NCBI GenBank assembly: GCA_945865815.1
Contig: CAMBFR010000003.1
Coordinates: 1,258-65,257 of the forward strand
Direction: 5' to 3'
From: Candidatus Sulfopaludibacter sp. SbA3
Lineage (GTDB): Bacteria; Acidobacteriota; Terriglobia; 20CM-2-55-15
DNA: 64,000 nucleotides
Below, one piece after another: positions 3,678 to 39,792 of this stretch (the stretch's first letter is position 1; each line of letters begins with the position of its first letter). The notes beneath the pieces are model-generated. The model ran no database searches. It saw only the letters and a list, made by a program, of their open reading frames with translations, and was not told the DNA's origin. A program made the translations under genes and the position numbers.

Positions 3678-3679
3678 CA

Positions 3680-4699: not shown

Positions 4700-4714
4700 T
4701 TCGGGAGCCCTCCC

Positions 4715-4852
4715 TCAGTGGTGATGATCGTCTCCGCCGCCGGCGCCCGGCTGAGGCGAGATCGGACGGCTCTGCTCAGCATTCGGCTTTATCAGACTCC
4801 CGATAATGACTCCAACGATCAGTACTCCCAGTGCGATCAGCGCTTCTCTCAT
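4715..4852 (-). CDS. small single-pass membrane peptide (45 aa)
   Basis: Translates as MREALIALGVLIVGVIIGSLIKPNAEQSRPISPQPGAGGGDDHHH. A GGAGGTG Shine-Dalgarno sits 8 nt upstream of the ATG at 4852. One hydrophobic helix is followed by a Gly/Asp/His tail. Only the last 45 codons of ORF 4715..5299 are plausible. Confidence 0.35.
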   Translation of the reverse strand: MREALIALGVLIVGVIIGSLIKPNAEQSRPISPQPGAGGGDDHHH

Positions 4853-4982
4853 CAAAAACACCTCCAATGTGTCCGGAAACACTATAAGGCAGGATTTAAA
4901 ATCCGGGCGACTGATGTTGCGCCACCGAACGCCACAGCGAAATCGGCAACGTGATGTGTCTTTTGCAGTAAGGAGACGCAAT

Positions 4983-5109
4983 TCCCCTCCTGTTTTAGGA
5001 GGGGTGGCGCGAAGCGCCGGGGTGGTATTGAAGGTCCACAGACTCTTTCGATCATTATACCACCCCGCCCTCGCTGTCGCTCGGGCTCTCCTCCTAAAAC
5101 AGGAGGGGA
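4983..5109. repeat. copy A (short form) of the GC-rich nested-palindrome intergenic repeat family
   Basis: Hairpin CCCCTCCTGTTTTAGGAGGGG at one end and CTCCTCCTAAAACAGGAGGGG at the other. Between them lie GGGGTGGTAT...ATACCACCCC and a GGCGCGAAGCGCC hairpin. The CCCCTCCT..AGGAGGGG and GGGGTGGT modules are shared with copies B, C and D. Confidence 0.6.
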
Positions 5110-5160
5110 ATTTGATCGCCAGGGCGGATCGGAATCTTCGGGATTGGACTCCGGATTTCC

Positions 5161-6789
5161 CTACAGCATTTCGTAACCGGGACCGCCGCCACCTTCCGGC
5201 GTAACCCAGTTGATGATCTGATACGGATCCATGATGTCGCACGTCTTGCAGTGGACGCAGTTGGACGCGTTGATCTGCAGCCGGTTGGCATCGGTCCATT
5301 CATAAACGGCGGCGGGACAGAAGTGCTGGCAGGGATTTCCAAATTCCTTGGTACAGCGGTTGGTGCAGATGTCGGGTTCAAGGACAACGAGGTGGCAGGG
5401 CTGGTCTTCGTCGTGGTCGGTACCGGAGTTGTAGACGTCGGTCAGCTTATCGAACGTGAGTTTCCTGTCGAAGGCGGCTTCCACCGGCGCTGGAACCGCA
5501 CCATTGTAGTATTCGAGAACCTTCCGCATGCGGGCGTGACCGGGGTGGTTCGTATACCGGTTGCGCAGACCGCGGCCGCCAGTCGCCATCTGGAGGCTGG
5601 TATGGATCATTCCCGAAAGGAAACCGTGTTCGAACGCCTGATGGAAGTTTCGAACCCTCCATAATTCCTCTTTCACCCAACTGCTCTCGACAAGGTCGTG
5701 GAAGCGCTTCAGTCTGGCTTCCGAGAAGTCGTCAGCCGCAAGAGCTTCCGAAGCGGCCTGCGCCGCGAGCATGCCGGTCTTGAACGAGAGGTGAATTCCC
5801 TTCAGGCGCATGGCATTCAGGAAACCGCCCGAATCGCCAATGATCATTCCGCCATTAAAGTAGTACTGAGGCTGAGCCCAGTAACCGCCTTCCGGAATTG
5901 TCTTTGCGCCATAAGAATAGAGCGTGCCGCCTTCGAGAATGGTTCGAATGTAGGGATGCGTCTTGAATTCCTGGAAGCGCTTGTGCGGATCCAGCCGGGG
6001 ATCCAGGTAATCCAGGCCTACAACCAGTCCGATCGAAACGCGTCCGTCGGCCATGTTGTAGATGAAACCGCCGCCGAATTCCTCGGTGGTCAGGGGCCAG
6101 CCCATGGTGTGGATGACGCGGCCGTCGACACCTTTCTGGCTCGGGACATCCCAGATCTCTTTCACGCCGACCGTATACACCTGCGGATTGCGCCCCGCGT
6201 CGAGCTTGAACTTCTGCACCAGTTGTTTCGTGAGCGAGCCGCGTGAGCCTTCCGCAAGGATTGTTATCTTCGCGCGGATATCGATGCCGGGCTCGTAGTT
6301 CCCTTTCTTGTTCCCGTGCTTGTCGATACCTTTGTCGCCGGTACGGACGCCGGCCACGGCGCCGTCTTCGATGAGGAGATCGGCGCCGGAAAACCCGGCA
6401 AAGATATCGACGCCGTTCTTTTCGACCTGCTCGCCGAACCAGCGGATGAACTTGTTCAGCGAGATGATGTAGTTGCCGTGGTTCTTCAGGGGAGGCGGAA
6501 TTATGGGAAGGTCGAACTTCCGGTTGCTGGTCAGATACGTGACATGGTCTTCCCGGACGGGACGCTCGACCGGCGCGCCTTTCTCCTTCCAGTCGGGCAT
6601 CAATTCGTTGATGCCTCGCGGATCCATCACCGCACCGGAAATGATGTGGGCGCCAATCTCCTTTCCTTTTTCCAGGACCGCGATCGACGCATCCGGATTC
6701 AGGCTGCGCAAGTGATAAGCGGCTGCGAGTCCCGACGGGCCGCCGCCGACGATGAGTACGTCAACTTCCAACGTTTCACGCTCGGCCAT
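5161..6789 (-). CDS. electron-transfer flavoprotein:ubiquinone oxidoreductase
   Basis: FAD-binding VDVLIVGGGPSGLAAAY, an ETF-QO body, and a C-terminal 4Fe-4S ferredoxin segment CVHCKTCDI. The ATG at 6789 (MAERETLEV) was verified. Confidence 0.9.
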   Translation of the reverse strand: MAERETLEVDVLIVGGGPSGLAAAYHLRSLNPDASIAVLEKGKEIGAHIISGAVMDPRGINELMPDWKEKGAPVERPVREDHVTYLTSNRKFDLPIIPPPLKNHGNYIISLNKFIRWFGEQVEKNGVDIFAGFSGADLLIEDGAVAGVRTGDKGIDKHGNKKGNYEPGIDIRAKITILAEGSRGSLTKQLVQKFKLDAGRNPQVYTVGVKEIWDVPSQKGVDGRVIHTMGWPLTTEEFGGGFIYNMADGRVSIGLVVGLDYLDPRLDPHKRFQEFKTHPYIRTILEGGTLYSYGAKTIPEGGYWAQPQYYFNGGMIIGDSGGFLNAMRLKGIHLSFKTGMLAAQAASEALAADDFSEARLKRFHDLVESSWVKEELWRVRNFHQAFEHGFLSGMIHTSLQMATGGRGLRNRYTNHPGHARMRKVLEYYNGAVPAPVEAAFDRKLTFDKLTDVYNSGTDHDEDQPCHLVVLEPDICTNRCTKEFGNPCQHFCPAAVYEWTDANRLQINASNCVHCKTCDIMDPYQIINWVTPEGGGGPGYEML

Positions 6790-6803
6790 AGGGCAAGTAT
6801 CTC

Positions 6804-8066
6804 CTAATCCGTATAACGCTTGAACAGCAGCGAGGCGTTCGTTCCGCCGAATCCAAAGGAGTTTGAAAGCGCATACTTGATGCTGGCCTTGCGCATTTGA
6901 TTCGGCGTGTAATCCAGATCGCAATCGGGATCGGGGGTGTCGTAGTTAATGGTCGGGGGTATGACGCCGCGTTCGATGGCTAGTACCGTGATTCCGGCTT
7001 CCACCGCGCCCGCCGCGCCAAGCAGGTGCCCAACCATCGATTTTGTCGAGCTGATTGAGAGCTTGCGGGCGTGTTCGCCGAACAGGCGCTTTATCGCATG
7101 GGTTTCGATGCGATCGTTGGGCGGAGTCGACGTGCCGTGCGCGTTGATATAGTCCACCTCTTCAGGTTTGATTCCCGCATCCGTAATTGCGTTCAACATG
7201 ACGCGCATGGCGCCGTGGCCGTCGTCTGGAGGGAGAGTGATGTGGTATGCGTCGCCGCTCATGCCATAGCCGACGAGTTCGGCGAGGATGGTCGCGCCCC
7301 GCTTCCTTGCCAACTCCAGTTCTTCAAGGATGACGACGCCTGCGCCTTCTCCGACGACAAATCCGTCGCGATCCTTGTCGAAGGGCCGGGACGCGCGCAA
7401 CGGTTCTTCGTTTCGAGTGGATAGAGCGCGCATCGCCGCAAAACCGCCGACGCCCATGGGAGTGATCGCTGCCTCGGAGCCTCCTGCGATCATTGCATCC
7501 GCGTCGCCGCGCGCGATCGCGCGGAACGCATCCCCGACTGCGTGCGCGCCCGATGAGCATGCCGTGCATGGCGCCGAGTTCGGGCCGCGGGCGCCGAACC
7601 GGATCGAAACCTGGCCAGCCGCAAGGTTGATGATGCTGGACGGAATAAAGAACGGGGATATCTTGCGCGGTCCGCCCTCGAGCAATGCCGTGTGCTCACG
7701 CTCGATTATCGCGAATCCACCAATTCCCGATCCGATGAATACTCCGGTCCGCTCCCGGAGTTCATCCGTAATCTGGAGGCCGGACTGCTTCATAGCAAAG
7801 TCCGCGGCTGCCACCGCGTAATGGATGAAGCTGTCCATCTTCTTGACGTCTTTCTTTTCGAACCATCGCAACGGATCGAAGTTTTTGACTTCAGCGGCAA
7901 TTCGCGTTGAAAACTGAGCCGTGTCGAAACGCGTGATGGCCGTAACGCCACTGCGCCCTTCACATAAACCCTTCCAGGTTTCCTCAGTTCCTGTTCCCAG
8001 CGCCGTAACCAGCCCGACGCCGGTAACGACGACTCTTCTCTTCTGCAATTCGTTAATTCCCTTCAC
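6804..8066 (-). CDS. fabF: beta-ketoacyl-ACP synthase II
   Basis: KAS II signature across the whole ORF: RRVVVTGVG, active-site Cys region [14 protein letters not shown], and His-His [15 protein letters not shown]. Confidence 0.9.
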
Positions 8067-14097: not shown

Positions 14098-17000
14098 CTA
14101 GTTCAGCGAAAGCGTCAGGGGGGCGCCGTCGTCTCCGAAGAAGCGCAGGCTTCCGCTCGGCGACTGGCCCGCCGCTCCGCTGAATACGATGAATTCGGTT
14201 GTGAATCCCCCACCATTGACGATATGCGGGAACAGGAGTTCGGTGGATGATGCAGCCGCTCCTTCGTTCGTGGGAGGAGTGGTTGTCATGAGGTAACTGC
14301 CGAGCTCGTTGTATCGGCTTCGTATTCCGACAACAGAAATGCCGGAGGATGCCGACATTCGGAGCACGCCACGAAACGGATTCGGCAGGTTCGAAAAAAA
14401 GCTTCCGAGAGAATCCACGATCTGCCCGGCCGCAGGCAAAGTGCGGGCGACTGGCGCGGGCAGTCCCGTGGTGGATCCATCCATGTTGGTCAACTCCAGC
14501 GTGACAGTTCCCGCCGCGTTCGATGTATTTGCAATCGCGAAACCGCTTTCGATGTTGCCTGCCCTCCCCGGTATGCCGGACAACTCCACGTACATTCGAA
14601 AAGCAGAACCCTGAATCGCCGGCACACTCGCTTCGGAAAGCGTGATTCCGGCAGGCTTGTACGTGAAGACCGCCATCGCTGACGGCGCCACGCCTCCGCC
14701 CGCAGGGACTACGCGTACGGATCCCTGGGTCAAAACGGCGCCGCCTACACCGGACAATCTGGCCGAATCGCGGCCCGCCACCGAGTAAGGAACGCTGCGG
14801 CTCAGCTGACCGCCCTGGCTGTAAACCTCCACCGCACCCGTCAGCGCGTTATCGGTGGGATTGACCAACAGGATCTGGGTGGTCATGCCGCCACCATCGG
14901 CAAAGTGCGGAATGTACTGCGTGCCACTGGAAGCGGAAAGCGATGTATTCACCACGGGCAATGTGGTCATGAGGAATTCCGCAGGCGTCCGCTCGTTGAA
15001 GAAGGATCGGAGAGCGACTGCTGAAACGGGAACGCTGGAGCTGAAGCTGAATGTGCCCTGAATCGCATTGCCGCCATTGACCGGTTCACTATTCAGGAAG
15101 AACGCTTTCTGCGTGTTCGCGGGAATCGTAAACGTTCCGGTTCGGCCGGGCCCCGCGCTGTTTGTGATTTGAAAGGTGATGACAGCGGCCTGGCTATTGG
15201 GGTTGGCAATGGCAACACCGGTATTCAGCGGCCCATTCACTTCGGCATAAATACGTCCGTTCTGGATCGGGGACGACGCAGGAACGCCGGCTTCCGAGAC
15301 CAGCACATTGTTCTGGCGGAATCCTAGAATCGCAATTCCGGATGCCGTCGTGCTTCCCGAATCGGGCTGAATGCGCGTGTACCCCTGCACCAGTGCGCCG
15401 GCGCCGTCGGTCCTGAGAGAGGACCCTCCGCGATTGGCAACTGTAAAAGGCCGGACCGGAAGGGGCGGATCGGCCTGAAGAAGCACGATCCGCTGGCCCG
15501 CAACACTCGTGGTGATGTCTGTAAAGAACACATGACCCGCATCGCTGAGGTTGAGGTCGAGGAAAGTGCCGGTCAGCCACTGCCGATCCAAACGATCAAA
15601 ACGCCGCGCGACGGCGATATCGCGGCCGTCGGACTTATGCACGACAGCGATAACTTCGCCGGCGCCTGCGAAGTACGCGATATCGCCGCTCGCCGATGCA
15701 ACGAACTTGTTATTGTGGAACCACTGAACCGACGAGCCGAAGCTGAGGCCGCTGCCCCGCGACACGACAGGCCGCCACCCGCTTCCGTCGTAGTAAGCGA
15801 TGTGTTCCGCCGAATTGCCGGCCCATAAGAACGCATAAAAGCGGTTACCGGCTGCTTGAAGACTGGTGAAATTGGCGATTGGTTGGCCGCCCGGCCCCGA
15901 ATCACCAGCCGAACCGATGCGCCGTATCTGGCCGTTCTCCCAAAGAAACGCTGCCACGCCGCCACCGTTCAGTGTCGCGACAAAAGCCACGCGGCCATTT
16001 TCGTCGATGGCAATTTCGTTCAGGTAACTGTATGTTCCGCCGCCTGGTGCTGCAGTTCCCCCGCTCATTACCAGAGTCGGCCGCCCCCCGGCGCCCGGAA
16101 AGAAGAACACTCCGACTGACTGGTCGAAGCTTGCCTGCACCGCCATTTGACCGCGGTCGTTCACCGCATGCGGGCCGTATATCCAGCCCACATTCACACT
16201 CGCGAGACTCGCCATCTGGATCGCTCGGCCCGCAGCCATCACGAGTGTGGCAACGCTGTTGCGCCACAAGTGAATCGACCGGCCGACTGTTGTCTGGGTT
16301 TCGAACAGAATGTTTCCGCTGCGGCTCGAGAAGTGCTGGTCGATTGAGATCAATCTCCCTTCCGATCCCATAACGTCGCCGGGCGAAATCAACGGCTGAA
16401 TGGCATTTCGTGTAATCGCCGCCAGAATACCGCCAGCGGTTTTAAGAACAGGACCGCTGGGATTGATGCCGCGGCCCAGTTCCCTCCAGCGAAGGCCCGT
16501 CGACACGGCGCCGTCGATGGCGCGGCCGGTTTCCACAAGGGGCGCTGATGAGGTTGATACGCCGCTTACAAGCGCGATCCTCCCTGCCGAACTTCCGTGG
16601 CTTCCCCGCACCATGACGTCTCCGGTTGACCGGACCACTGCATTGCTGATGTCCAGCCAGTCATTGGCGCTGCTTCCTCCGTAGGGGGCAACCATGGAAA
16701 TCTGCTCGCCTTCCAACCGGAACACGCCGCTGCCCTGATCGGAGTCTCCCTTGAACACAACGGTGCTGCCGCGAGCATCGAACAGGTTATGGATGCCCCA
16801 GATGTTCGGAGAGTTCGATCCCGCGAGAGCAGGCACGACCTGCCGCCATGAACCGGTCGAATACTTGCCAATCATGTTGAAATCAGGGCCGCCAAAACGG
16901 CCGTACAGGTCGCCGGAATCGGTGCGCATGGGCACATCAAGCCATTGGATCGTCCGGCCCAGAACGACGTCGCCCGTGACGTACACTTTCTGAACTTGTC

Positions 17001-18201
17001 TGGCGTCCCACAAGAAACCACCTTGCCCTCGCGCGTTCCCGGCCATAAAGGTAACAGCGCCCGAGTTCGAAATCAGCGGCGGATTCATCCAGTCGGCAAC
17101 ACCAAGGCCAGGCAAAGTCTGCCCGCCGGTGACGACTGCTTCCGACTGTCCATCGGCGCGCATAACCCACATCTCGTTTGCGCGGCCGGTCCACAAGGTG
17201 ATTGCCAGATCTCCATTGTCGTTCAGAGATTTCGGACCGATATTAATGCAGCACGAACAGCACGCGCCGGATCGCAAAGGCGGGGGCATGACTACAGGGG
17301 AAAACGATGCACCGCGAAACGCCACAACAATGTCGAGGGGACGGTTGATCAGAACAACAACTTCGCCGCGGCCATTCATCGCAATTCCGTCGATGGTTTG
17401 AATGATTGCGTCTGCAACCGCCAGATTGTCGCCGGTAACGGCCAGAGTTCGAAGCGATCCGTTCTGGTAAACCATGGCGGCCTGCGAGCCGTTTGAGAGC
17501 GTCCCGATGAAGGCGAAGCGGTCGGCGCCGCCGTAGCTGATGTCTCCCATGGCGCGAAGCGTGACGGCGCTCGTCCGCACATCGTTGGCAATCGCCTGGC
17601 TCAGGCGATACGTGGGCCGCGTGCGAACCGTCACTGAAGCCTGACCGCCAAAGTGATACCTGGAATCGGCTGCGCCAATCAGTGCCGCAATCGTGGTCTC
17701 GCCCGCCTCAAGACCAGTGACGGTTCCCAGCGAATTCACCGACACGACGGCCGGCAGGCTCGAGAACCAGACAAACGGGACGTCGGCGAGAACGCGCCTG
17801 TCCGCGTCGACTGCTCTTACACTGACTGTTGCCGTCTGGCCAACTTCCAGCTCCACCCGGCTCGGCGTGATTTCAACCGCGAGAGGATAAACTCGGACTT
17901 CGAACCGTCCGGTTACCGAGTCTCCGGTCGCCTGGATTTCGGCGACGCCAGGCATCAGACCCTGCAGTTGGCCACGCTCGTCAACGCGCGCAATCTCGGG
18001 CCGGTTCGATGTCCAGACCGGTCGAAAACCCGAAACCGTAGCTCCTGTCACCGTCCTTGCCGTGGCACGCAACTGAAGGGAACGGGCGCTGATGACGAAA
18101 TCCTGCGGCGCCGTAATCTCAATAGTCGCCACGCTTACCGGCAGGTTTTGAGTCCACGCGGGAATGGATGCCAGAAAGCAGATCGCGGCCAGGAGCAGCA
18201 T
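14098..18201 (-). CDS. giant secreted protein with Big_2 Ig-like domains, NDxGxVAF-type beta-propeller-like repeats and C-terminal ~100-aa tandem modules
   Basis: Signal peptide MLLLAAICFLASIPAWTQ begins at the ATG near 18201. Big_2-like segments (TARTVTGATVSGFRPVWTSNRPEIARVDERGQLQGLMPGVAEIQA). Many repeats of the form I(N/D)xxGxVAFxAxLNGG. Three C-terminal GxAIANxxNxAxxT(F/L)xxTN modules. The N-terminal 56 codons of ORF 14098..18369 are not plausible coding. Confidence 0.7.
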   Translation of the reverse strand: MLLLAAICFLASIPAWTQNLPVSVATIEITAPQDFVISARSLQLRATARTVTGATVSGFRPVWTSNRPEIARVDERGQLQGLMPGVAEIQATGDSVTGRFEVRVYPLAVEITPSRVELEVGQTATVSVRAVDADRRVLADVPFVWFSSLPAVVSVNSLGTVTGLEAGETTIAALIGAADSRYHFGGQASVTVRTRPTYRLSQAIANDVRTSAVTLRAMGDISYGGADRFAFIGTLSNGSQAAMVYQNGSLRTLAVTGDNLAVADAIIQTIDGIAMNGRGEVVVLINRPLDIVVAFRGASFSPVVMPPPLRSGACCSCCINIGPKSLNDNGDLAITLWTGRANEMWVMRADGQSEAVVTGGQTLPGLGVADWMNPPLISNSGAVTFMAGNARGQGGFLWDARQVQKVYVTGDVVLGRTIQWLDVPMRTDSGDLYGRFGGPDFNMIGKYSTGSWRQVVPALAGSNSPNIWGIHNLFDARGSTVVFKGDSDQGSGVFRLEGEQISMVAPYGGSSANDWLDISNAVVRSTGDVMVRGSHGSSAGRIALVSGVSTSSAPLVETGRAIDGAVSTGLRWRELGRGINPSGPVLKTAGGILAAITRNAIQPLISPGDVMGSEGRLISIDQHFSSRSGNILFETQTTVGRSIHLWRNSVATLVMAAGRAIQMASLASVNVGWIYGPHAVNDRGQMAVQASFDQSVGVFFFPGAGGRPTLVMSGGTAAPGGGTYSYLNEIAIDENGRVAFVATLNGGGVAAFLWENGQIRRIGSAGDSGPGGQPIANFTSLQAAGNRFYAFLWAGNSAEHIAYYDGSGWRPVVSRGSGLSFGSSVQWFHNNKFVASASGDIAYFAGAGEVIAVVHKSDGRDIAVARRFDRLDRQWLTGTFLDLNLSDAGHVFFTDITTSVAGQRIVLLQADPPLPVRPFTVANRGGSSLRTDGAGALVQGYTRIQPDSGSTTASGIAILGFRQNNVLVSEAGVPASSPIQNGRIYAEVNGPLNTGVAIANPNSQAAVITFQITNSAGPGRTGTFTIPANTQKAFFLNSEPVNGGNAIQGTFSFSSSVPVSAVALRSFFNERTPAEFLMTTLPVVNTSLSASSGTQYIPHFADGGGMTTQILLVNPTDNALTGAVEVYSQGGQLSRSVPYSVAGRDSARLSGVGGAVLTQGSVRVVPAGGGVAPSAMAVFTYKPAGITLSEASVPAIQGSAFRMYVELSGIPGRAGNIESGFAIANTSNAAGTVTLELTNMDGSTTGLPAPVARTLPAAGQIVDSLGSFFSNLPNPFRGVLRMSASSGISVVGIRSRYNELGSYLMTTTPPTNEGAAASSTELLFPHIVNGGGFTTEFIVFSGAAGQSPSGSLRFFGDDGAPLTLSLN

Positions 18202-18238
18202 GCAGCCGCGGGCATAAAGCCCGCGGCTACCGCCTGCG

Positions 18239-20998
18239 TTAGAAGAGTGGTTCTGCCACATAAACCACAGTCCGGTCTTTAATATCTCTTCCCCTGAAAT
18301 AAACTCTCCGGTCGTCGCCCAGGACAATATGGGTGACTCCCATGATGTAGTCTCCGTCTTCGGTGGCAACCGTGCTCGTTTGAATCATGCCCACCCTGTC
18401 GGCGCCACGAAAAACCAGTCCGTTCATGCCGCCCCTGAAGCCTGCCGCAAACGCGATGTCGCCTTGCCGATTTACAGCGAAATTGCCGATGAAGTTGATC
18501 TCCGCGCCGTTTGGACCTGTGTCGGCATTGGTCACAAGCGGAATCCATTCTCGATCCCGATATTCCGCAAGAACGTTTTGGCCGCCACTGAGGTTAAGAA
18601 TGGCGTAGAAGCGGCCATTCGCTGCTTCCAGCTGGCTGACCCGCGTGATGGTCTGGTTGTTCACCCGGGTGACGTCCATCAAAGCAGCCGCTATCCAGTT
18701 CCCGTTTTCATGGAGGAACAAGCCCGAGGGTCCGCCATTGACAGCCAGATACGTCATGACGCGGCCGAGCGAATCCACAGCCTGAGGCCACCCCAAATTC
18801 CGTACGACGCCGCCGGCCGGGCTCGTTGTCTGCCAGAGCGGGTTCCCCACGCTGTAAGCCAGCACGGTGGTACGGCCGTTGGCCAGGAGAAGCAAACGCT
18901 GATGCTGCCGGTCCGTGTCGGCTCTCACCAGCGCGAACCCATTTTCGCTGACCGAGAGCAGCGTGGCGCTCGACAGCAGGACTCCATCGCTCGCGGATGT
19001 GTTGTGCGCCATAACCACTTCGGCCCGGCCACCGGCTAGACGATAGATATTTCCCGCGGAACTGAAATAGAGTCCCTGGCTGCTCTGGTACGAGATCCCG
19101 TCGATTCCGTCGAAGATGGATCTATCCGGGAGGCGGTCTCCATTAAGCAATCGTGGAATCGGACCTCGCGGATTCAATGAGAAAAGATTGGCGCGCCCTC
19201 CGCCCAGGAGCACGTAAGGCTCTCCGGCGTCACTGCCGGAAGCCAGGCCGTTGATGGTTATGTTCGCCGTAACGTTGACCTGGCTACCCGCCTGAAAAAG
19301 CACCATTGGGTCCGGCGCCGCCCGAACCACGACGAACTGATTGTCCACGGTTGCGACATCCGCATACACCCGGCCGTCCGCGGTGATGGCGACAGCGTTT
19401 ATGCTTCGAATCGGCTCGCCATTGGGAGCGATCCCTCCTTCGGCCAGGATCAGCGACGGATTGCCGCTCTCCCATCGATACAGCGCGGATCCCGCTCCAG
19501 TGTCGGCGACAAAAGCGACACTGCCGTTGGAAGCAATTGCGAGGCGGTTCCCCCACCATCTCAGTGCTACGTTTTCAGTGCGCACGGCGGTTTTGCGCGA
19601 CAGATACATTTGTCCGCCGTCCACCTCCAGGACGAACGCGAGGGTTCCATCGGCCGCATTGGCGAGATCGTAAATACTACGGACTGTCGAACCGGCGAAA
19701 GAATCGCCGGTTCCAATGACCTTCACCGGACTCTGCGCGCGCTCCCTTCGATAGATGGCGTTACCTGTGCCGCTCCACGCCCTGAAATACACCGTCCCGG
19801 CGCGATCGATTCCAATCTCGTTGACACCGAGCACGCCTTCCAGTCCGGGCAGAGGCTCGCCTTCCCACCACGCCAATTCCAACCCCGATTCCGAGCGCAC
19901 AAATAATCCATTCCGCCCAAGAGGAATATTGGCCCATTGGAATTGCGCCCCGAAGGCGATATCACCGTTGTCGTTCAGGTCGAAACCGCGGCCGCAGCAC
20001 AAGCGCAGATTTTCGAAGCCGCCTGCGGATTCGCCCTCGAGTAAGACGAAGGATTTTCCCTGCCGCGATGCGAGCACCAAAGCGATCCCAGGCTGGCCGT
20101 CAATTCCGGCCAGCGTCAGAACGTCGCCGCGGCTGTTGATCACCGGCGGCTCCATGCCCATAATGGTGCCGCCGGGCAGAGGCCCGAGCGTTCCGGCGCC
20201 GACCAGGAGGTCGAAGACACCCCTGTCATACAGCATCAAGCCACTGGTCATGCCATTCAACGACGCATTAAATGCAACCTGGCCGGCATCATTGACTGCG
20301 ATTTTGTGACTGCCAGTCGGCGGGCGCAACGAAGCCGATGGCAGCACCTCGTCAGATGAAAGCAACCGGGTGAGCCGGTACGACGCCGGCGCCCGCACAT
20401 CAATCGCCGCGCTGCCGCTGACCTGCGGCGCAAACTGGCCCTGACCCGCGGGATAGTTGATCGATGCGACCACCGTAAACCTGCCCACGGCACTGGCGGA
20501 CAACACGCCGGTGTTGTCGATTCGCGCAGCCTGGGTCTGAAACCCTCCGGCCCCGATGACCTGCCATAGAAAGGTCACGCCCGGAATCGGTTGCAGATCC
20601 ACGTTCAGCGCGGAGGCCCGAAACTGAAACTGATCTCCCACGATGACGACCTTTGATGAAGGGGACACATCAATTCTCAGCGGCAGGACCTGAATGCGGA
20701 CACTCGCCGACAGGCTGGTCAGCGAAGCGGCAATTTCAGTGACCCCCAGGCCGCGAGCCGTTACCAGGCCGTTCGCGTCCACCGTGGCAATGTTTGTGTT
20801 GTTGGATCGCCAGCTGAACTGGTCGCTTGCACGCAGCGAGCCGTCCGAATTGCGGGCGGAAGCGAGAACAAGAGTCTGTTGCCCGGAAATGAGCCGTGGC
20901 TGCTCGATGAAAAGATGGATGCGGCTCACACGAGTCTGTGCGAACCCGGACGCCGTAGCGGCGAGGTAGAGGATTGCCAGGAAACGGGAGACTCTCAA
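18239..20998 (-). CDS. giant secreted Big_2 / beta-propeller-repeat protein (second copy of the family)
   Basis: A TTG start with GGAGGA about 10 nt upstream gives the signal peptide (M)RVSRFLAILYLAATASGFAQT. The TTG overlaps the TGA of the DUF1501 gene. Big_2 segments and repeats LNDNGDIAFGAQF, VNDAGQVAFNASLNG, VNRQGDIAFAAGF. The first 156 codons of ORF 18239..21466 are Arg-rich out-of-frame overlap and not real. Confidence 0.7.
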   Translation of the reverse strand: MRVSRFLAILYLAATASGFAQTRVSRIHLFIEQPRLISGQQTLVLASARNSDGSLRASDQFSWRSNNTNIATVDANGLVTARGLGVTEIAASLTSLSASVRIQVLPLRIDVSPSSKVVIVGDQFQFRASALNVDLQPIPGVTFLWQVIGAGGFQTQAARIDNTGVLSASAVGRFTVVASINYPAGQGQFAPQVSGSAAIDVRAPASYRLTRLLSSDEVLPSASLRPPTGSHKIAVNDAGQVAFNASLNGMTSGLMLYDRGVFDLLVGAGTLGPLPGGTIMGMEPPVINSRGDVLTLAGIDGQPGIALVLASRQGKSFVLLEGESAGGFENLRLCCGRGFDLNDNGDIAFGAQFQWANIPLGRNGLFVRSESGLELAWWEGEPLPGLEGVLGVNEIGIDRAGTVYFRAWSGTGNAIYRRERAQSPVKVIGTGDSFAGSTVRSIYDLANAADGTLAFVLEVDGGQMYLSRKTAVRTENVALRWWGNRLAIASNGSVAFVADTGAGSALYRWESGNPSLILAEGGIAPNGEPIRSINAVAITADGRVYADVATVDNQFVVVRAAPDPMVLFQAGSQVNVTANITINGLASGSDAGEPYVLLGGGRANLFSLNPRGPIPRLLNGDRLPDRSIFDGIDGISYQSSQGLYFSSAGNIYRLAGGRAEVVMAHNTSASDGVLLSSATLLSVSENGFALVRADTDRQHQRLLLLANGRTTVLAYSVGNPLWQTTSPAGGVVRNLGWPQAVDSLGRVMTYLAVNGGPSGLFLHENGNWIAAALMDVTRVNNQTITRVSQLEAANGRFYAILNLSGGQNVLAEYRDREWIPLVTNADTGPNGAEINFIGNFAVNRQGDIAFAAGFRGGMNGLVFRGADRVGMIQTSTVATEDGDYIMGVTHIVLGDDRRVYFRGRDIKDRTVVYVAEPLF

Positions 20999-22311
20999 CC
21001 GAAAACTTCCTCCACTGCCGTATACACTCCGTACTCGGCATATGGAACGTACTCGAACTTTCGGCCCGACGGAGTATCGGTAATGCTCTTGGTCCAGTTG
21101 ATCCCAAGGGCGGAATAGATCGTTGCCGCCAGATCCTCCATAACGATCGGGCGCTGAGCGCTCCACCCGGGAGTAGTAACCCTGTCGCCAATTCTGTCTG
21201 TCGCACCGATGGCCCGGCCGCCCCGGACGCCGCCACCGAGCATCGCCACGCTCATCGCATACTTGTGGTGGTCGCGGCCGCCTCGTGAATTCAAGTCTCC
21301 AGGCGTGCGCCCGAATTCTCCCATCATCACGATAAGCGTCTGGGCGAAATCGCCGCTTGCCTTGAGATCTTCCACCAGCGCGCCAACAGCCCGGTCGAGC
21401 TCGTTTGTGAGTTGATAAATACTGGGGGTGTAGCGGCGATCGAACATGTTCTGGTGCGTGTCCCATCCCTGTTGAGTGACGTTCACGAACACCGTCCCGC
21501 TTTTTGCCTGGATCGCATTGCGTGCAACGATAACCGAGCGCGCGAAATTCGTGTCTCCGTACCGCCCGGTGTCGTCACTCGAGAACCGGAATACATTCGA
21601 AATTCCCTGCTGATACATCAGCTGCCGGGCAGACTTGTAGAAGTCGGAGTGGTCGGCCATCCGCCTGTCGAAGGGAGCGGCGCGCAATGGTCCCTCCAGA
21701 TCTTCAAGGAGCTTGAACTTCTCTTCGAACCGCGTCTGGCTCTCGTTGCCATAGAAACTGTGTTCGAGGGTTGCAAGGCCGCCGGCGTTGGTCGGCGCCG
21801 TCATCGGCTGAAGCTTTCCGCCCAGAAACGTCGCCCCCTGCCCCGCAAACGAGTTGAGGGTGAAGAACGGGGGCAGCCGGTCATCGCTGCTCTTCTCGAG
21901 TCCAACGACTGCTCCGATATGAGGAGTCTCCGCGACGAATGCAGGGTTGGAGGGATGCGCGGTCTGCATGTAGAACTGGCCGCGCGTGTGCTCGGCTTCC
22001 CAACTGGAAACGGAACGAAGAACGGCGAGGTCGTTCGTGATTTTGGACAATTGCGGAAACAGCGTATTTGAAAGAACGATGCCGCCCGGATATTGCCGGA
22101 GATCGGCGTCGAAGGGATTCCACGGGCCGTCCTTGGGATCAAACGTATCCAGGTGGCTCGGGGCTCCGGAGAGATTTATGAAAATGCAGGCTCGGGCCGT
22201 GCCGCGAACATTTGCGGATGGCGAGACGCTCACCTGTGCTTCTCCCGTTCGAGCCAGAGACATGAACGCAGTCCAGCTCGCCGCCTGCTTCAGCCAGTCG
22301 CGCCGTGTCAT
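20995..22311 (-). CDS. DUF1501 family protein (sulfatase-like fold, Tat signal)
   Basis: MTRRDWLKQAASWTAFMSLA twin-arginine leader. The DUF1501 hallmark is ...MLGGGVRGGRAIGATDRIGD... The ATG at 22311 was verified. Confidence 0.75.
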   Translation of the reverse strand: MTRRDWLKQAASWTAFMSLARTGEAQVSVSPSANVRGTARACIFINLSGAPSHLDTFDPKDGPWNPFDADLRQYPGGIVLSNTLFPQLSKITNDLAVLRSVSSWEAEHTRGQFYMQTAHPSNPAFVAETPHIGAVVGLEKSSDDRLPPFFTLNSFAGQGATFLGGKLQPMTAPTNAGGLATLEHSFYGNESQTRFEEKFKLLEDLEGPLRAAPFDRRMADHSDFYKSARQLMYQQGISNVFRFSSDDTGRYGDTNFARSVIVARNAIQAKSGTVFVNVTQQGWDTHQNMFDRRYTPSIYQLTNELDRAVGALVEDLKASGDFAQTLIVMMGEFGRTPGDLNSRGGRDHHKYAMSVAMLGGGVRGGRAIGATDRIGDRVTTPGWSAQRPIVMEDLAATIYSALGINWTKSITDTPSGRKFEYVPYAEYGVYTAVEEVFG

Positions 22312-22345
22312 CTTGTAACAGCTCGGACAGCCCTTCACGTGACTC

Positions 22346-23524
22346 CTAGTAGTTGAATATGAAATCCAGCTTGTTGAGCAGCACCCATTGGAGATTGGAC
22401 AGCCACCTTTCGCGGTCATCAATCTTCGCTGCGTTGACCGTGGCCATCTCATGCTCGGCGGGATCGCGCCCAAGCGTGGCCAGGAACATCTGGCGCACCA
22501 GCTCGTCGTCGCTCGCCGTTGAACGCAACAGCGTGCTGACGCGGGTATTCATGCCGCGGTTGTCGAAAGTCCTGTTGTTGATCGCCGAATCATTCATGAA
22601 ATAGAGGACCTGAATGACGGTTGTCGTCGAATTTCGGGGAAGCTGCCACCAATCGCCGCGTCCGAAGTTGGTCAGGAAGTTCCGGACGTTGAAATCCTGG
22701 GAAGGCTCGGTCGGATCGGGAAGCTGCGTCGCGTAGAGCACGGGCTTGTCGAATCCCTGGACGCTCATCGGCGCTTCGGTCCGGGTGGCCGTTATGACGG
22801 CGTCGTAAATTTCCTCAGCCAGGAGACGCCGCGGAAAGTGCTTGGCAAAATAAGGAGCAAATTCCGGCTTCCATTCACCCGGATACCGGCTCGACAACTG
22901 GTAGGCGTTCGACTCCACCATCAAACGGATCATCCGGCGGACGCTGTAGTTCGACCGGATGAACTCATCGGCCAACGCCTCGATCAACTCCGGATGCGTC
23001 GGGTGCAAACCCCACGGCGCAGCAGGCGGCTGCTTTGGATTGATTCTGCCAAGATCCCAGGCATCCGGCGGGTCTACGATGCCAACCGTGAAGAAATGCG
23101 CCCACAGGTAATTGACAGCGGCCCTCGCAAACTGACGATCTGAAACCAGCATCCGGGCAAATTCTTCGCGCCAGTTGCCGCCGCGGGGTTTCTCACCGGT
23201 CAGCATGAATACAGGCTCGTATGGAGCACCCACTCTCGACGGACGCGGCCCGGGATTATTGGAATTCACATAGCCGTGGTAGCTGCCGACCGGCCGATCC
23301 GAAATAATCACGCGGTTCTGCTGATTGAAGGCGTCCACCGGAATGACGTTCATGTTCATGCGCGAAAAAAACGCCGACATGCGCATGAATTCGGAGCGCC
23401 GGCGCACCGCCATGTACGTATTGATCTCCTCCAGGTGACGCCGCCCGTCGTGACAGGAAATGCATTCCGTCTTGATACCGAGAAATCTTGTGGTGACGCG
23501 GTCGGTGAGCGTGTCCCAGGTGTC
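22346..23524 (-). CDS. DUF1553 (PSD1) portion of a DUF1549-DUF1553 protein; downstream half of a gene split by an in-frame TAG
   Basis: Ends ...WVLLNKLDFIFNY, the typical DUF1553 C-terminus. Between the TAG at 23525-23527 and the first Met at 23413 it reads DTWDTLTDRVTTRFLGIKTECISCHDGRRHLEEINTY in the same frame. That segment carries the conserved C..CHD motif that links PSCyt2 to PSD1. Confidence 0.55.
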   Translation of the reverse strand, partial: DTWDTLTDRVTTRFLGIKTECISCHDGRRHLEEINTYMAVRRRSEFMRMSAFFSRMNMNVIPVDAFNQQNRVIISDRPVGSYHGYVNSNNPGPRPSRVGAPYEPVFMLTGEKPRGGNWREEFARMLVSDRQFARAAVNYLWAHFFTVGIVDPPDAWDLGRINPKQPPAAPWGLHPTHPELIEALADEFIRSNYSVRRMIRLMVESNAYQLSSRYPGEWKPEFAPYFAKHFPRRLLAEEIYDAVITATRTEAPMSVQGFDKPVLYATQLPDPTEPSQDFNVRNFLTNFGRGDWWQLPRNSTTTVIQVLYFMNDSAINNRTFDNRGMNTRVSTLLRSTASDDELVRQMFLATLGRDPAEHEMATVNAAKIDDRERWLSNLQWVLLNKLDFIFNY

Positions 23525-24157
23525 CTAAATCGGATCACCCTGCTGGGACGCGCGAATCAGGAAATTCGGTGGACCCGATGTGTGGGAGTCTCCGGTTGCC
23601 GTGATCAACTCGGTGGCGATCTCCTGATAAGAACGATCCCTTGCGACGAAATCACGAAGGTAGGAATGGAAGAGATTGCGTCCCGGAATCCCAATCAGGT
23701 TGTAGTACCGTCCCGTAACCTCGAAAAAGTTCGCGTAGTAGAACGTCCAGTTATCGATGAATGCTTCAGACCCGACCAGGGAATCGATAAGGAAGGAACG
23801 CTTGTCGGCGCGCCCATCGGCAAGAAACGCCTCCACCTGCTCGGGCTGGGGAATCCGCCCTGTCACGTCCAGGGAAAGGCGCCTTAGAAATTCCGCATCC
23901 GTCGTGAGAGGCGCCGGCTGAACGCCTGCGGCCGCCATTTTGCCGAAAATGAAATCGTCGATGAAATTGTTGCTGCCCTGGGCGAACCGGATATCGCCCG
24001 GCTCGCCAAGCGAGGAAACCAGCACCTCCGGCGCCGCGTCTTTCTGAGACCGCGCGAACTCCGGCGGAAACTGACTGTGGGGATATACGGGGCAATGATC
24101 GCTTCCTGCCCAGACCGACATCGCGCCGAGAAGAAGCGCTACGGAAACTCGATGCAT
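23525..24157 (-). CDS. DUF1549 (PSCyt2) portion of the same DUF1549-DUF1553 gene; terminated by an in-frame TAG at 23525-23527
   Basis: Signal peptide MHRVSVALLLGAMSVWA. DUF1549 motifs DDFIFGKMAAAGVQPAP...EFLRRLSLDVTGRIPQPEQVEAFLAD...KR..LIDSLVGSEAFIDNWTFYYANFF. Confidence 0.55.
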   Translation of the reverse strand: MHRVSVALLLGAMSVWAGSDHCPVYPHSQFPPEFARSQKDAAPEVLVSSLGEPGDIRFAQGSNNFIDDFIFGKMAAAGVQPAPLTTDAEFLRRLSLDVTGRIPQPEQVEAFLADGRADKRSFLIDSLVGSEAFIDNWTFYYANFFEVTGRYYNLIGIPGRNLFHSYLRDFVARDRSYQEIATELITATGDSHTSGPPNFLIRASQQGDPI

Positions 24158-24207
24158 CCAGCGAAACTCCAGGCCGCGATGTTAGTCACGGGGCTAAATC
24201 GAGTCAA

Positions 24208-24238
24208 TTGAATCCTGTACCGGGTAGTGGCGTATAAT
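24208..24238 (+). promoter_or_regulatory. candidate sigma70 promoter for the cytochrome c-propeller gene
   Basis: TTGAAT (24208-24213), a 19-nt spacer, then a perfect TATAAT (24233-24238). AGGAGG sits 8 nt upstream of the ATG at 24282. The spacer is on the long side. Confidence 0.3.
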
Positions 24239-24281
24239 CGCGCAAATTTCCATACAGTCTTCAAGCAGGAGGGTAAGGCGC

Positions 24282-25499
24282 ATGCGAAGCAAAGCGTTCC
24301 CAGTTCTGACATCAGCGATGTTTGCCGGTCTCCTTGTTGTTGTGCCGGCAGAAGCACAGCGGGGCGGCACGGTTCAGTTGCCGGCAGGAGCAGGCCGGGA
24401 AATTCTCCAGAGTAAGTGCACCCAGTGCCACGGACTAAACCTGATCACCAACTCGGCCGGCTTCAGCAGAGACGTCTGGGGAGCCCTGATCCCCACGATG
24501 GTGGCGATGCCCGCCGATGAAGCCGGAGTGCTCAGCGGATACCTGGCAGCGAACTTCCCCGCAAAGCCCGGGACTCGTCCCTCGCTGGTTTCGGGTGAGA
24601 CGTCGATCAAGATCAAGGAGTGGATGGTCCCGACCCTTGGCCAGCGGTCGCGCGACCCCATCGAGGCGCCGGACGGCTCGATCTGGTGGACCGGTATGTG
24701 GGCAAGCCTGGCGGGAAGGCTCGATCCCAAGACGGGACAGATGAAAGAGTACCCTCTGCCGCCCAGCGCAAAACCGCACACCATATTTCCCGACAAAGAT
24801 GGAACCATCTGGTACACAGGCAACAGCAACGCCACGATCGGCAAGCTGGATCCCAGTACCGGGAAGACCACAGAGTATCCGACCAAGGCGCGAGATCCTC
24901 ATTCCGCCGTTATCCACCAGAACGGCAGAATCTATTTCACCGCCCAGGGCGCGCGCATGATCGGGCGTCTCAGTCCCGAGACCGGCGAAATCACCGAGGT
25001 CCCGACAGAGGCGAATCCTTACGGAATCCAGGCGGCTCCCGACGGCACGCTCTGGGTTGCCTACAACGGGACAAACAAAATCGGCGCCGTTAATCCGGAT
25101 ACGCTGAGTATCCGTTACTACGAGGTGCCGGACACGGCGTCGCGTATTCGCCGCCTCGGACTTACCAGTGACGGCATGGTCTGGTATGGAAACAACACGC
25201 GAGGCCGAATTGGCAGGCTCAACCCGAAGACGGGCGAGGTCCGGGAGTGGCTGTCGCCGAGCGGCCCGACATCCGATCCTTATGCCTTCGTCGTCGTCAA
25301 GGACATCATCTGGTACAACGAATCAGGAATGAGACCGGACACGCTCGTGCGCTTTGACCCGAAGACGGAACGATTCCAAAGCTGGCCGATTCCCTCCGGA
25401 TTCGGCATCATCCGGAATTTCGGCGTGACCCGGGAAGGTAACCTGATTATCCACCAGAGCAGCTCGAACCGCGTGGGCCTGGTTGAAATCCAAAACTAG
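24282..25499 (+). CDS. cytochrome c domain fused to a six-bladed Vgb-like (streptogramin-lyase-type) beta-propeller
   Basis: Signal peptide, then CTQCH haem motif with ...DVWGALIPTM. Six repeats follow of the type DGSIWWTG..GRLDPKTGQMKEYPLP, DGTIWYTG..GKLDPSTGKTTEYP, NGRIYFTA..GRLSPETGEITEVP and so on. Confidence 0.75.
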   Translation: MRSKAFPVLTSAMFAGLLVVVPAEAQRGGTVQLPAGAGREILQSKCTQCHGLNLITNSAGFSRDVWGALIPTMVAMPADEAGVLSGYLAANFPAKPGTRPSLVSGETSIKIKEWMVPTLGQRSRDPIEAPDGSIWWTGMWASLAGRLDPKTGQMKEYPLPPSAKPHTIFPDKDGTIWYTGNSNATIGKLDPSTGKTTEYPTKARDPHSAVIHQNGRIYFTAQGARMIGRLSPETGEITEVPTEANPYGIQAAPDGTLWVAYNGTNKIGAVNPDTLSIRYYEVPDTASRIRRLGLTSDGMVWYGNNTRGRIGRLNPKTGEVREWLSPSGPTSDPYAFVVVKDIIWYNESGMRPDTLVRFDPKTERFQSWPIPSGFGIIRNFGVTREGNLIIHQSSSNRVGLVEIQN

Positions 25500-26706: not shown

Positions 26707-27022
26707 GGCGCGGGGCTTTAGCGCTGTGCAAAGTTCCAGAAAATTTCTATTTGATCCCTGGCACCGGGCTAAAAGCCCCGCGCCTGCGCAAAAACTCCCC
26801 TCCTGGATTAGGAGGGGTGCCGTTCGCGCGTTTTTTAGCGAACGGCGGGGTGGTGTCCAATCAATTAATGAGCGCTACGCGAGCATCCATAAGGTGGCTT
26901 CGCGTCATTCCGTACCACCCCGTCTGCGCCAATAAGGAACGGGACCATTCCCCTGGTGGCGCAGCCACCCCTCCTAACACAGGCGGGGAATAGGAGTGGC
27001 ACGGGGCTGAAGCCCCGCGCCT
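26707..27022. repeat. copy B of the GC-rich nested-palindrome intergenic repeat family (~315 bp)
   Basis: Modules: GGCGCGGGGCTTT...AAAGCCCCGCGCC, CTCCCCTCCTGGATTAGGAGGGGTG, CCGTTCGCGCGTTTTTTAGCGAACGG, GGGGTGGTGT...GTACCACCCCG, CCACCCCTCCTAACACAGGCGGGG and GGCACGGGGCTGAAGCCCCGCGCC. Same orientation as copy D. Confidence 0.65.
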
Positions 27023-27040
27023 ACGGGTCGACTGCAGGGT

Positions 27041-28257: not shown

Positions 28258-29349
28258 TTATTTGTTCGCCGTCAGATTTTTATGCACTGCGTCGATGAAC
28301 ATATCTGTTGTCCATGGACCCGTAGTCGAACCCCAACGTCCGTCGAAGTCCATGGTGAGCCTGGCGGCCTTAATCTGCTGCAAGGTCAATCCTCTGCTTA
28401 TGGCGTCCTGAATCCGGTCCCGCACCACGGCCAGCATGTCGCGATAGTAAACCACATCCGCGAGGTCTGTAAGCCGTCCATGGCCCGGAATTACCATGGT
28501 GCCGCCCTGCGTCCTGAACTCGGGAATGCCGATCTCGAGAATCTTGTTAAGCCCCTCGATAATTCCGTTAATGCTGCCTCCCTTTTCCACGTCGATCATG
28601 GGATAGCTGACCGTCGACATGATGTCGCCCGCGACGATAACGTCCGAGTAACGGAAATATACGAGGCTGTCGCCATCGGTGTGCGCATTAGGCATATGGA
28701 TCATCTGAACGCCCTCGCCGTTGAAAAAATGGCTCAGCTTGAACGTACTGAGGCGAAACGTCTCGGTCGGCAACTCATCTCCAGGCAGGGTCTCGGCCAT
28801 TCGGCTGAGCACGTTCTCATGCGTGATCAGCCCCGCCCCCTGCGGAACAGCGCCGGAACTCGCGATATTGCCGCCGGTGTATGTGACGCCTGCCGTCACG
28901 ATCTTCTTATTGCCGCCGACATGATCCGGGTCGATGTTCGTGTTGATCACGTAACGGATGGGCTGCGGTGGCGCGGGCGAACTGATGATGTCGTTGATCG
29001 CCGGATTGGACCATCCATATGGATTGTGAAATTCGCGACAGCGCAATCCCACGCACGGCGTGACCGGCATAGGATTTGAATTCACCGCCAGGGACAGCTT
29101 GTTCACGGTTTCCAGAACTTTGTCCGCATTCGCCGCCGTGCCGGTGTCGACAATCAACACACCGTCTCTTCCGACGGACACCGCGATGTTTCCGCCCGCG
29201 CCCACCAGCATGTAGACATTTCCGCTGACAGGCAGAACCTGAATTTGATTCTGCCGGCCATAAACAAGTTCCGTAAGACCGGAAATTCCGGAGAAACCAA
29301 TAGCGGCAATCACAGCCGTCCACAGCGCCGATTTGAGTGTTCTTCTCAT
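28258..29349 (-). CDS. MBL-fold metallo-hydrolase, secreted
   Basis: Signal peptide. N-terminal beta-lactamase-fold segment VYMLVGAGGNIAVSVGRDGVLIVDTG. Metal-site segments NIDPDHVGGN and HTDGDSLV. Confidence 0.75.
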   Translation of the reverse strand: MRRTLKSALWTAVIAAIGFSGISGLTELVYGRQNQIQVLPVSGNVYMLVGAGGNIAVSVGRDGVLIVDTGTAANADKVLETVNKLSLAVNSNPMPVTPCVGLRCREFHNPYGWSNPAINDIISSPAPPQPIRYVINTNIDPDHVGGNKKIVTAGVTYTGGNIASSGAVPQGAGLITHENVLSRMAETLPGDELPTETFRLSTFKLSHFFNGEGVQMIHMPNAHTDGDSLVYFRYSDVIVAGDIMSTVSYPMIDVEKGGSINGIIEGLNKILEIGIPEFRTQGGTMVIPGHGRLTDLADVVYYRDMLAVVRDRIQDAISRGLTLQQIKAARLTMDFDGRWGSTTGPWTTDMFIDAVHKNLTANK

Positions 29350-31995: not shown

Positions 31996-32343
31996 CTATT
32001 TTGCCGAAAGCTCGGCATACAACTGGCCGATGAATCGCTCCGTTATTTGCGGTGTAATTCCCGGAACGCGCGCATCGAAGTCTGCCGTCGGCTTGGCGGC
32101 GGCCACAATCTTGTCCGTCAGCGGCGCAAACTGGCTATCGACAAGGAACACGCCGTCCGGGCCGACCAATGCGCCGATCATTCCGCCCTGCCCTTCGAGT
32201 GTGTAAAAGTTGTTGGCGATCCGGGTGGTTTTGATCTCGACCCTGCTGAAGTCCTGCTGGTTTTGCGCCGCAGCCGGGAACGCCGTTGTGACCGTCACAA
32301 ACAAGGTAAGAAGGCGTGAGAACCACATTATTCTTACTGTCAT
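31996..32343 (-). pseudogene. 115-aa ORF matching only the N-terminal ~1/3 of an MBL-fold hydrolase (likely remnant)
   Basis: Signal peptide plus NNFYTLEGQGGMIGALVGPDGVFLVDSQ. It is collinear with the N-terminus of the 28258..29349 MBL protein but stops before any metal-binding motif. Confidence 0.4.
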
Positions 32344-36440: not shown

Positions 36441-36720
36441 GGGCGCGGGGCTTCAGCCCCGTGCACTGAAGTTTGGACATCACACGTATGCCGAGCAAGC
36501 GAAACGTGAGTCCGAACTCCCCTCCTGTCTTAGGAGGGGTGGCTGCGCCGAAGGCGCAGACGGGGTGGTACGGAATGACGCGAAGCCAAGTTATGGATGC
36601 TCGCGTAGCGCTCATTCAATAAGGATGCTTCGCATCATGTACACCACCCCGCCGTTCGCAAAAAACGCGCGAACGGCACCCCTCCTAATCCAGGAGGGGA
36701 GTTCGGGGCTGAAGCCCGGC
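36441..36720. repeat. copy C of the GC-rich nested-palindrome repeat family (inverted relative to copies B and D)
   Basis: Contains GGGCGCGGGGCTTCAGCCCCGTGC, CCCCTCCTGTCTTAGGAGGGGTGGCTGCGCCGAAGGCGCAGACGGGGTGGTACGGAATGACGCGAAGCC ... CGTTCGCAAAAAACGCGCGAACGG ... CCCCTCCTAATCCAGGAGGGG. It is the reverse complement of the module order in copy D. Confidence 0.65.
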
Positions 36721-39492: not shown

Positions 39493-39792
39493 GGCGCGGG
39501 GCTTCAGCCCCGCGCAAAACCTCCCCTCCTGGATTAGGAGGGGTGCCGGTCGCGTTTTTTCAGCGAACGGCGGGGTGGTGTACATGCTGCGAAGCCACCC
39601 TATGGATATTCGCGCAGCGCACCGATTTGAATGAGCGCTACGCGAGCATCCATAAGGTGGCTTCGCGTCATTCCGTACCACCCCGTCTGCGCCTTCGGCG
39701 CAGCCACCCCTCCTAAGACAGGAGGGGAGTTCGGACTCGCGTTTCGCTTGCTCGACATAATGTCCACACTTCAGGCACGGGACTGAAGCCTA
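39493..39792. repeat. copy D of the GC-rich nested-palindrome repeat family
   Basis: Same module order as copy B. Reverse-complement of copy C, about 85-90% identical by eye. Confidence 0.65.

Follow-up and report, generated by a model that had tools for sequence, protein, structure and literature searches.

Premature stop codons that split a bacterial gene into two called open reading frames (ORFs) are an already known, routine event. In the nonsense-mutation pseudogenes of bacterial genomes and metagenome-assembled genomes, a stop created by a single base falls within a conserved domain, each half is called as an ORF of its own and the ancestral codon can be recovered from orthologues. We describe here a locus with these same traits in a 64,000-nucleotide (nt) stretch of Candidatus Sulfopaludibacter sp. 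SbA3 (contig CAMBFR010000003.1, positions 1,258 to 65,257; this whole stretch is hereafter called the window), in which an in-frame TAG interrupts a gene coding for the domains DUF1549 (PSCyt2) and DUF1553 (PSD1). We found nothing substantive that sets it apart from such pseudogenes, except that it appears unusually fresh, with neither secondary lesions nor relaxation downstream of the stop. The interruption is very probably a recent CAG-to-TAG nonsense mutation, and the locus an incipient pseudogene rather than the site of a special decoding signal.

It was in Rhodopirellula baltica that PSCyt2 and PSD1 were first given these names; pairs of a PSCyt2-PSD1 gene and a DUF1501 gene occur widely across Planctomycetota, Verrucomicrobiota and Acidobacteriota. 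As to function, the literature that we found mentions the DUF1549-DUF1553 domains only in passing; NCBIfam holds no model for the family, and the PDB gave no sequence match to the family profile. The locus resembles these pairs in that both domains score above the gathering cut-offs, the product would measure about 600 amino acids (aa) if uninterrupted, an N-terminal leader is predicted and a DUF1501 gene lies 7 nt downstream. A second point of comparison is programmed UAG readthrough, as in gag-pol of murine leukemia virus, where Gln is inserted at the UAG, and at the leaky stops of plant viruses. The locus shares with these an in-frame UAG, a long conserved frame behind it and an expected Gln at the stop. 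However, viral readthrough stops are conserved among relatives and need a defined 3' context or pseudoknot, whereas the stop described here is confined to a single lineage and is followed by no such structure.

Results

A single TAG codon interrupts a DUF1549-DUF1553 gene

The region 24397..22346 of the window translates on the minus strand as a single continuous frame. Within it, the interrupted gene occupies 24157..22346 (604 codons, counting the internal and the terminal TAG), as delimited by translation, Pfam matches on the sequence bridged across the stop and gap-free collinearity with 603-aa orthologues. The frame starts at an ATG at 24157 (its translation opens MHRVSVALLL), reads MHRVSVALLLGAMSVWAGSD...IRASQQGDPI up to the TAG, continues through DTWDTLTDRVTTRFLGIKTECISCHDGRRHLEEINTY and MAVRRRSEF...FIFNY, and closes at the terminal stop. 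As the initial annotation had pointed out, a TAG at 23525..23527 (CTA on the plus strand) ends the DUF1549-like ORF at QQGDPI; translation identifies it as codon 211, and the orthologues and alignment described below trace it to a CAG (Gln) codon. That annotation had further held that this one TAG divides a gene of about 600 aa into two ORFs and that 37 codons of the same frame lead into the DUF1553-like ORF (MAVRRRSEF...). Both statements proved exact, the 604-codon frame yielding ORFs of 210 aa and 355 aa with precisely 37 codons (23524..23414) between the stop and the second ORF.

The upstream ORF (23528..24157, or 23525..24157 with its stop) has 210 codons and, according to the ORF list and Pfam, covers the signal peptide and the first ~60% of PSCyt2. 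The leader MHRVSVALLLGAMSVWAG (24104..24157) is a predicted signal peptide, read by eye as a hydrophobic core followed by small residues, and the homologues have equivalent N-termini in the alignment. The 37 conserved codons that follow the stop (23414..23524) encode the C-terminal part of PSCyt2 and are left untranslated. Immediately after them, an internal ATG (23413..23411, codon 249) opens the downstream ORF (22346..23413; 355 codons plus stop), which the ORF list and Pfam show to comprise the inter-domain segment and PSD1/DUF1553. This ORF lacks a signal peptide, and its start Met lines up with an internal Met or Leu of the homologues. A Shine-Dalgarno-like string, GGAGGAG (23426..23432, minus strand), stands 12 nt before the internal ATG. 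Because the intact locus of the closest orthologue (L003, see below) has GGAGGAA at the same place, this string is a by-product of the conserved codons L-E-E and not a newly acquired start signal. A scan of the gene for internal sigma-70 promoters and terminators gave nothing above chance.

With Pfam gathering cut-offs of 29.8 bits for PSCyt2 (PF07583) and 28.5 bits for PSD1 (PF07587), the 210-aa ORF matched PSCyt2/DUF1549 at 81.7 bits over profile positions 2-126 of 209 only, and the stop-bridged frame matched it at 106.8 bits over positions 2-188 (residues 66-239). Since bridging stretches the match in this way, the stop sits within the PSCyt2 domain. PSD1/DUF1553 scored 113.1 bits on the 355-aa ORF and 111 bits on the bridged sequence, where it begins at residue 330. 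The codons past the stop include a C-x-S-C-H-x-G motif (C232, S234, C235, H236 and G238; 23444..23464, minus strand) whose named columns are invariant in two homologue alignments. The initial annotation had described a Cys-x2-Cys-His-Asp motif at the junction of the two domains. Such a motif is indeed present after the stop, but it belongs to PSCyt2 and is no linker to PSD1, because it lies within the match at residues 66-239 and PSD1 starts only at residue 330; nor is its Asp conserved, the residue after the motif His being D, N, H or A across homologues. A confident AlphaFold2 model of the orthologue forms a single compact body (mean predicted local distance difference test score 85, predicted template modeling score 0.86), in which Q211 lies where helix 210-226 begins. 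Members of the PSCyt2-PSD1 (DUF1549-DUF1553) family carry both domains on one uninterrupted chain of ~600 aa; at this locus, a disrupted member, the TAG at codon 211 breaks the chain.

The stop is absent from all relatives

A homologue search with the bridged protein returned 1387 matches at E <= 1e-10. Essentially all of the best 120 are single polypeptides of ~600 aa with both domains, and the sole 355-aa entry among those 120 (P0026) has the same sequence as the downstream ORF of the window. Intact homologues are single chains of 596-643 aa. An alignment of 62 of them has Gln in every sequence at the position of the TAG and Asp in every sequence at the next; among the first 26 homologues aligned, Gln accounted for at least 90% at the TAG position. 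The closest orthologue, P0001 (locus L003/L004, syntenic), has 603 aa, aligns without gaps at 92% aa and 88% nt identity, and comes from a sister sample within the same ENA project as the population of the window. The next relative, P0002 (L005), also has 603 aa and aligns without gaps at 80% aa and 77% nt identity. These orthologues are single 600-aa polypeptides and are not split likewise. Codon 211 is the sense codon CAG in L003, L004 and L005 vs TAG in the window; with CAG in both P0001 and P0002, the lesion therefore amounts to a single C>T transition that converted CAG into TAG. Each of the two ORFs (210 aa and 355 aa) forms a singleton cluster, and NCBI, ENA and Logan records list them in this split form.

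Furthermore, we scanned 185,579 species-representative genomes (the window's own genome is not among them) and the JGI metagenome collection with a degenerate DNA pattern, GGNGAYCCNNTNTAGGAYACNTGGGAY, for the context G-D-P-[ILVM]-stop-D-T-W-D. The TAG form of this pattern (GGNGAYCCNNTN-TAG-GAYACNTGGGAY) matched 0 loci in the species representatives and 0 in the JGI collection. Its CAG form, used as a positive control, matched 30 loci in the former, all from Acidobacteriota (Terriglobia, Bryobacterales, Solibacter), and 27 in the latter, giving 57 CAG vs 0 TAG. Neither the orthologues nor the pattern scans revealed a relative in which the stop is conserved.

The TAG is present in three assemblies

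The TAG recurs in two assemblies besides the GenBank contig. ENA contig ERZ27280310:k141_1594249 differs from the window by one mismatch over 13,068 bases, located in an intergenic region at 27029; over 10,469 bases, the Logan assembly of run ERR5863117 shows no difference from the window. Both read GATCCGATT-TAG-GACACC. A random assembly error is unlikely because two assemblers called this same base, which stands in no fewer than two separate consensus sequences; there is still a small probability of an artefact or of a segregating variant.

The frame downstream of the stop has not decayed

Compared with L003, codons 1-210 have a ratio of non-synonymous to synonymous substitution rates (dN/dS) of 0.118, and codons 212-603 one of 0.063. 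The 37 codons that directly follow the stop differ from L003 by 13 synonymous and 0 non-synonymous changes, and the post-stop frame contains no further stop or frameshift downstream of the TAG. We polarized the amino-acid differences with P0002 and other homologues. Of 28 differences in the 392 post-stop codons, 4-5 fall on the lineage of the window, 14-21 on the lineage of the intact P0001, and 2 are ambiguous; the window lineage thus carries 7 post-stop changes at most, with both ambiguous sites counted. The post-stop frame offers ~907 non-synonymous sites, and pairwise synonymous divergence (dS) is 0.6, about half of which (~0.3) lies on the window branch. Neutrality over that whole branch would be expected to leave a few hundred replacements together with further stops and frameshifts. 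By this estimate, a neutral phase can cover only ~2-3% of the window branch or less, even if all of the 7 or fewer changes are assigned to it. An intact, undecayed post-stop frame means therefore either that the mutation is very young or that the frame is still under selection. Because the stop is absent from every relative, a young mutation would be the economical reading.

Stop codon usage and RNA structure around the TAG

In a greedy non-overlapping set of 52 ORFs of the window, the terminators are 19 TAG, 18 TAA and 15 TGA, and the interrupted gene itself also terminates with TAG. TAG is thus the commonest terminator in the window at 58.5% GC, a high amber-stop share for a bacterium. Scanning the window for stops flanked on either side by long open segments in the same frame revealed no other genuine split gene. 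The only candidate, the TAG at 31996-31998, was rejected as a second case, as a gene with a leader of its own lies on either side of it. Arg-CCT is the only tRNA in the 64-kb window, which yielded none with a CUA anticodon. The 126 nt from the stop onward fold with a minimum free energy of -32 kcal/mol, no better than shuffled sequences (z = +0.54), and the fold is not common to the orthologue L003.

Neighboring genes

An intact DUF1501 gene (20995..22338, minus strand; Pfam DUF1501, 220 bits; also called as a gene in L001) begins 7 nt past the PSD1 stop and is probably cotranscribed with the interrupted gene. It shares 93.6% aa identity with its counterpart beside L003, and the same adjacency occurs in both L003 and L004. 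Directly downstream of it, two very large Big_2/Ig-like proteins are encoded at 14098-21466 (minus strand), in synteny with L003; they measure 919 aa and ~1387 aa in public contigs, and 1075 and 1423 aa as ORFs read from the first possible start. L003 likewise has DUF1501 and Big_2 proteins of 919 aa and ~1385 aa downstream, and a cytochrome c gene upstream. This arrangement points to a conserved operon that extends beyond the DUF1549-DUF1553/DUF1501 pair.

The segment upstream of the pair is variable. The window carries a Vgb_lyase-family beta-propeller gene at 24282-25499 (plus strand), and L003 has instead, at 2522-7850, an FrsA-like gene, an AbiEii toxin gene with its partner and a DUF4011/MTES_1575 gene. 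Elsewhere in the window, an intergenic repeat of ~150-190 bp occurs in three copies (26783-26930, plus strand; 36553-36703, minus strand; 39509-39693, plus strand) with 79% mean column identity. It contains the nested hairpins CCCCTCCTGGATTAGGAGGGG, GCCGTTCGCGCG-T6-GCGAACGGC and GGGGTGGTGTAC...GTACCACCCC, has no match in Rfam, and looks like a miniature inverted-repeat transposable element or a repetitive extragenic palindrome. Finally, a 115-aa ORF with its own leader (31999-32343, minus strand) matches residues 35-79 and 321-362 of a 363-aa Lactamase_B protein encoded at 28261-29349 (minus strand). It looks like a paralogue with the metallo-beta-lactamase fold that lost its catalytic core of ~240 residues through an in-frame deletion, so that the window may contain two gene remnants.

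Discussion

The initial annotation had left three explanations for the interrupted gene side by side: a nonsense mutation, a sequencing error and programmed readthrough. Our results support the nonsense mutation, given the CAG in the closest orthologues and the Gln that is invariant in 62 homologues. An artefact of sequencing, assembly or consensus building, in which the true codon is CAG and the consensus took up an erroneous or minority T, is unlikely. The source is a metagenome assembly, as the k141_... contig names indicate, and the contigs with the TAG all stem from one ENA project, are near-identical and may share reads. However, two different assemblers (those behind the ENA k141_... 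contig and Logan) returned the same base, the ENA contig is a separate consensus that differs at 27029 and still keeps the TAG, and substitution errors are rare in deep short-read consensus. A leaky or programmed stop, at which a near-cognate tRNA-Gln(CUG) would read UAG as Gln so that the stop acts as an expression attenuator and a reduced amount of functional full-length protein is made, appears improbable. The intact and unrelaxed frame behind the stop speaks in its favor, as does the replacement of a Gln, which is among the residues inserted by natural UAG misreading in bacteria and eukaryotes. Programmed readthrough finds no support in the other observations: no relative has a stop at this site, the closest orthologues having CAG and the scans finding 0 TAG vs 57 CAG; the RNA that follows the stop does not exceed shuffled sequences in stability and folds differently in the orthologue; efficient decoding of UAG would be costly because TAG is an ordinary terminator and the most used one in the window; and the window encodes no tRNA with a CUA anticodon. 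We likewise give little credence to a naturally occurring leaky knock-down, an allele that restores Gln at a low but sufficient level and is selected instead of decaying.

The two ORFs could also be taken as a functional split, in which a DUF1549 fragment and a DUF1553 protein with its own initiation act as two subunits, since the second ORF has an ATG with GGAGGAG 12 nt upstream and gene callers annotate two proteins. This is very improbable. The 37 codons lost between the ORFs include five invariant residues, the ATG and the Shine-Dalgarno-like string are ordinary coding sequence that also occurs in the intact orthologue, the second ORF lacks a signal peptide, none of the 1387 homologues is split here, and the predicted fold is one compact unit. 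Genome-wide reassignment of TAG to a sense codon or to pyrrolysine has nothing in its favor apart from the in-frame TAG itself and is effectively refuted. TAG is a common terminator, ending ~19 of the 52 ORFs of the window, which encodes no tRNA-CUA and has no other real split gene, the sole other same-frame candidate (31996-31998) being two genes with their own leaders.

Three points weigh against a recent nonsense mutation. Absence of decay would be equally expected if readthrough had kept the frame under selection, and sequence alone cannot separate a young stop from a tolerated one. The three assemblies that carry the TAG may trace back to one sample, or to sister samples, within a single ENA project, so they are not fully independent. 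Furthermore, our searches turned up no conspecific allele with the CAG intact, the next-best protein being 92% identical.

With a recent nonsense mutation as the preferred reading, a C>T transition would have hit codon 211 of a DUF1549-DUF1553 gene that normally encodes a single secreted protein of 603 aa in an uncultured, Bryobacterales-like bacterium of the Terriglobia (Acidobacteriota), a placement taken from the names of the homologues and of the CAG control loci. Translation would stop within PSCyt2 and release an exported fragment of 210 aa that keeps the leader but is missing the final third of PSCyt2, together with the invariant C-x-S-C-H-x-G motif and the entire PSD1 domain. Reinitiation at the ATG of codon 249 would produce a fragment devoid of a signal peptide and hence in the wrong compartment. 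Basal misreading of UAG by a near-cognate tRNA-Gln would restore the wild-type residue, normally at trace level only, and the full-length protein would thus be made in trace amounts at most. As these products would be either truncated or leaderless, the interrupted gene is most likely a null or near-null allele. The DUF1501 partner may in addition be subject to transcriptional polarity.

Public databases list the 210-aa and 355-aa ORFs as two proteins; they should be annotated as one disrupted gene with an internal stop. The locus reveals no new decoding mechanism and brings no new insight into the function of the family. It offers a clean example, from an uncultured acidobacterium, of a nonsense allele that is probably very young, and suggests that this copy of the DUF1549-DUF1553 gene is dispensable, or was at least recently lost, in the population, where its DUF1501 partner is still intact.
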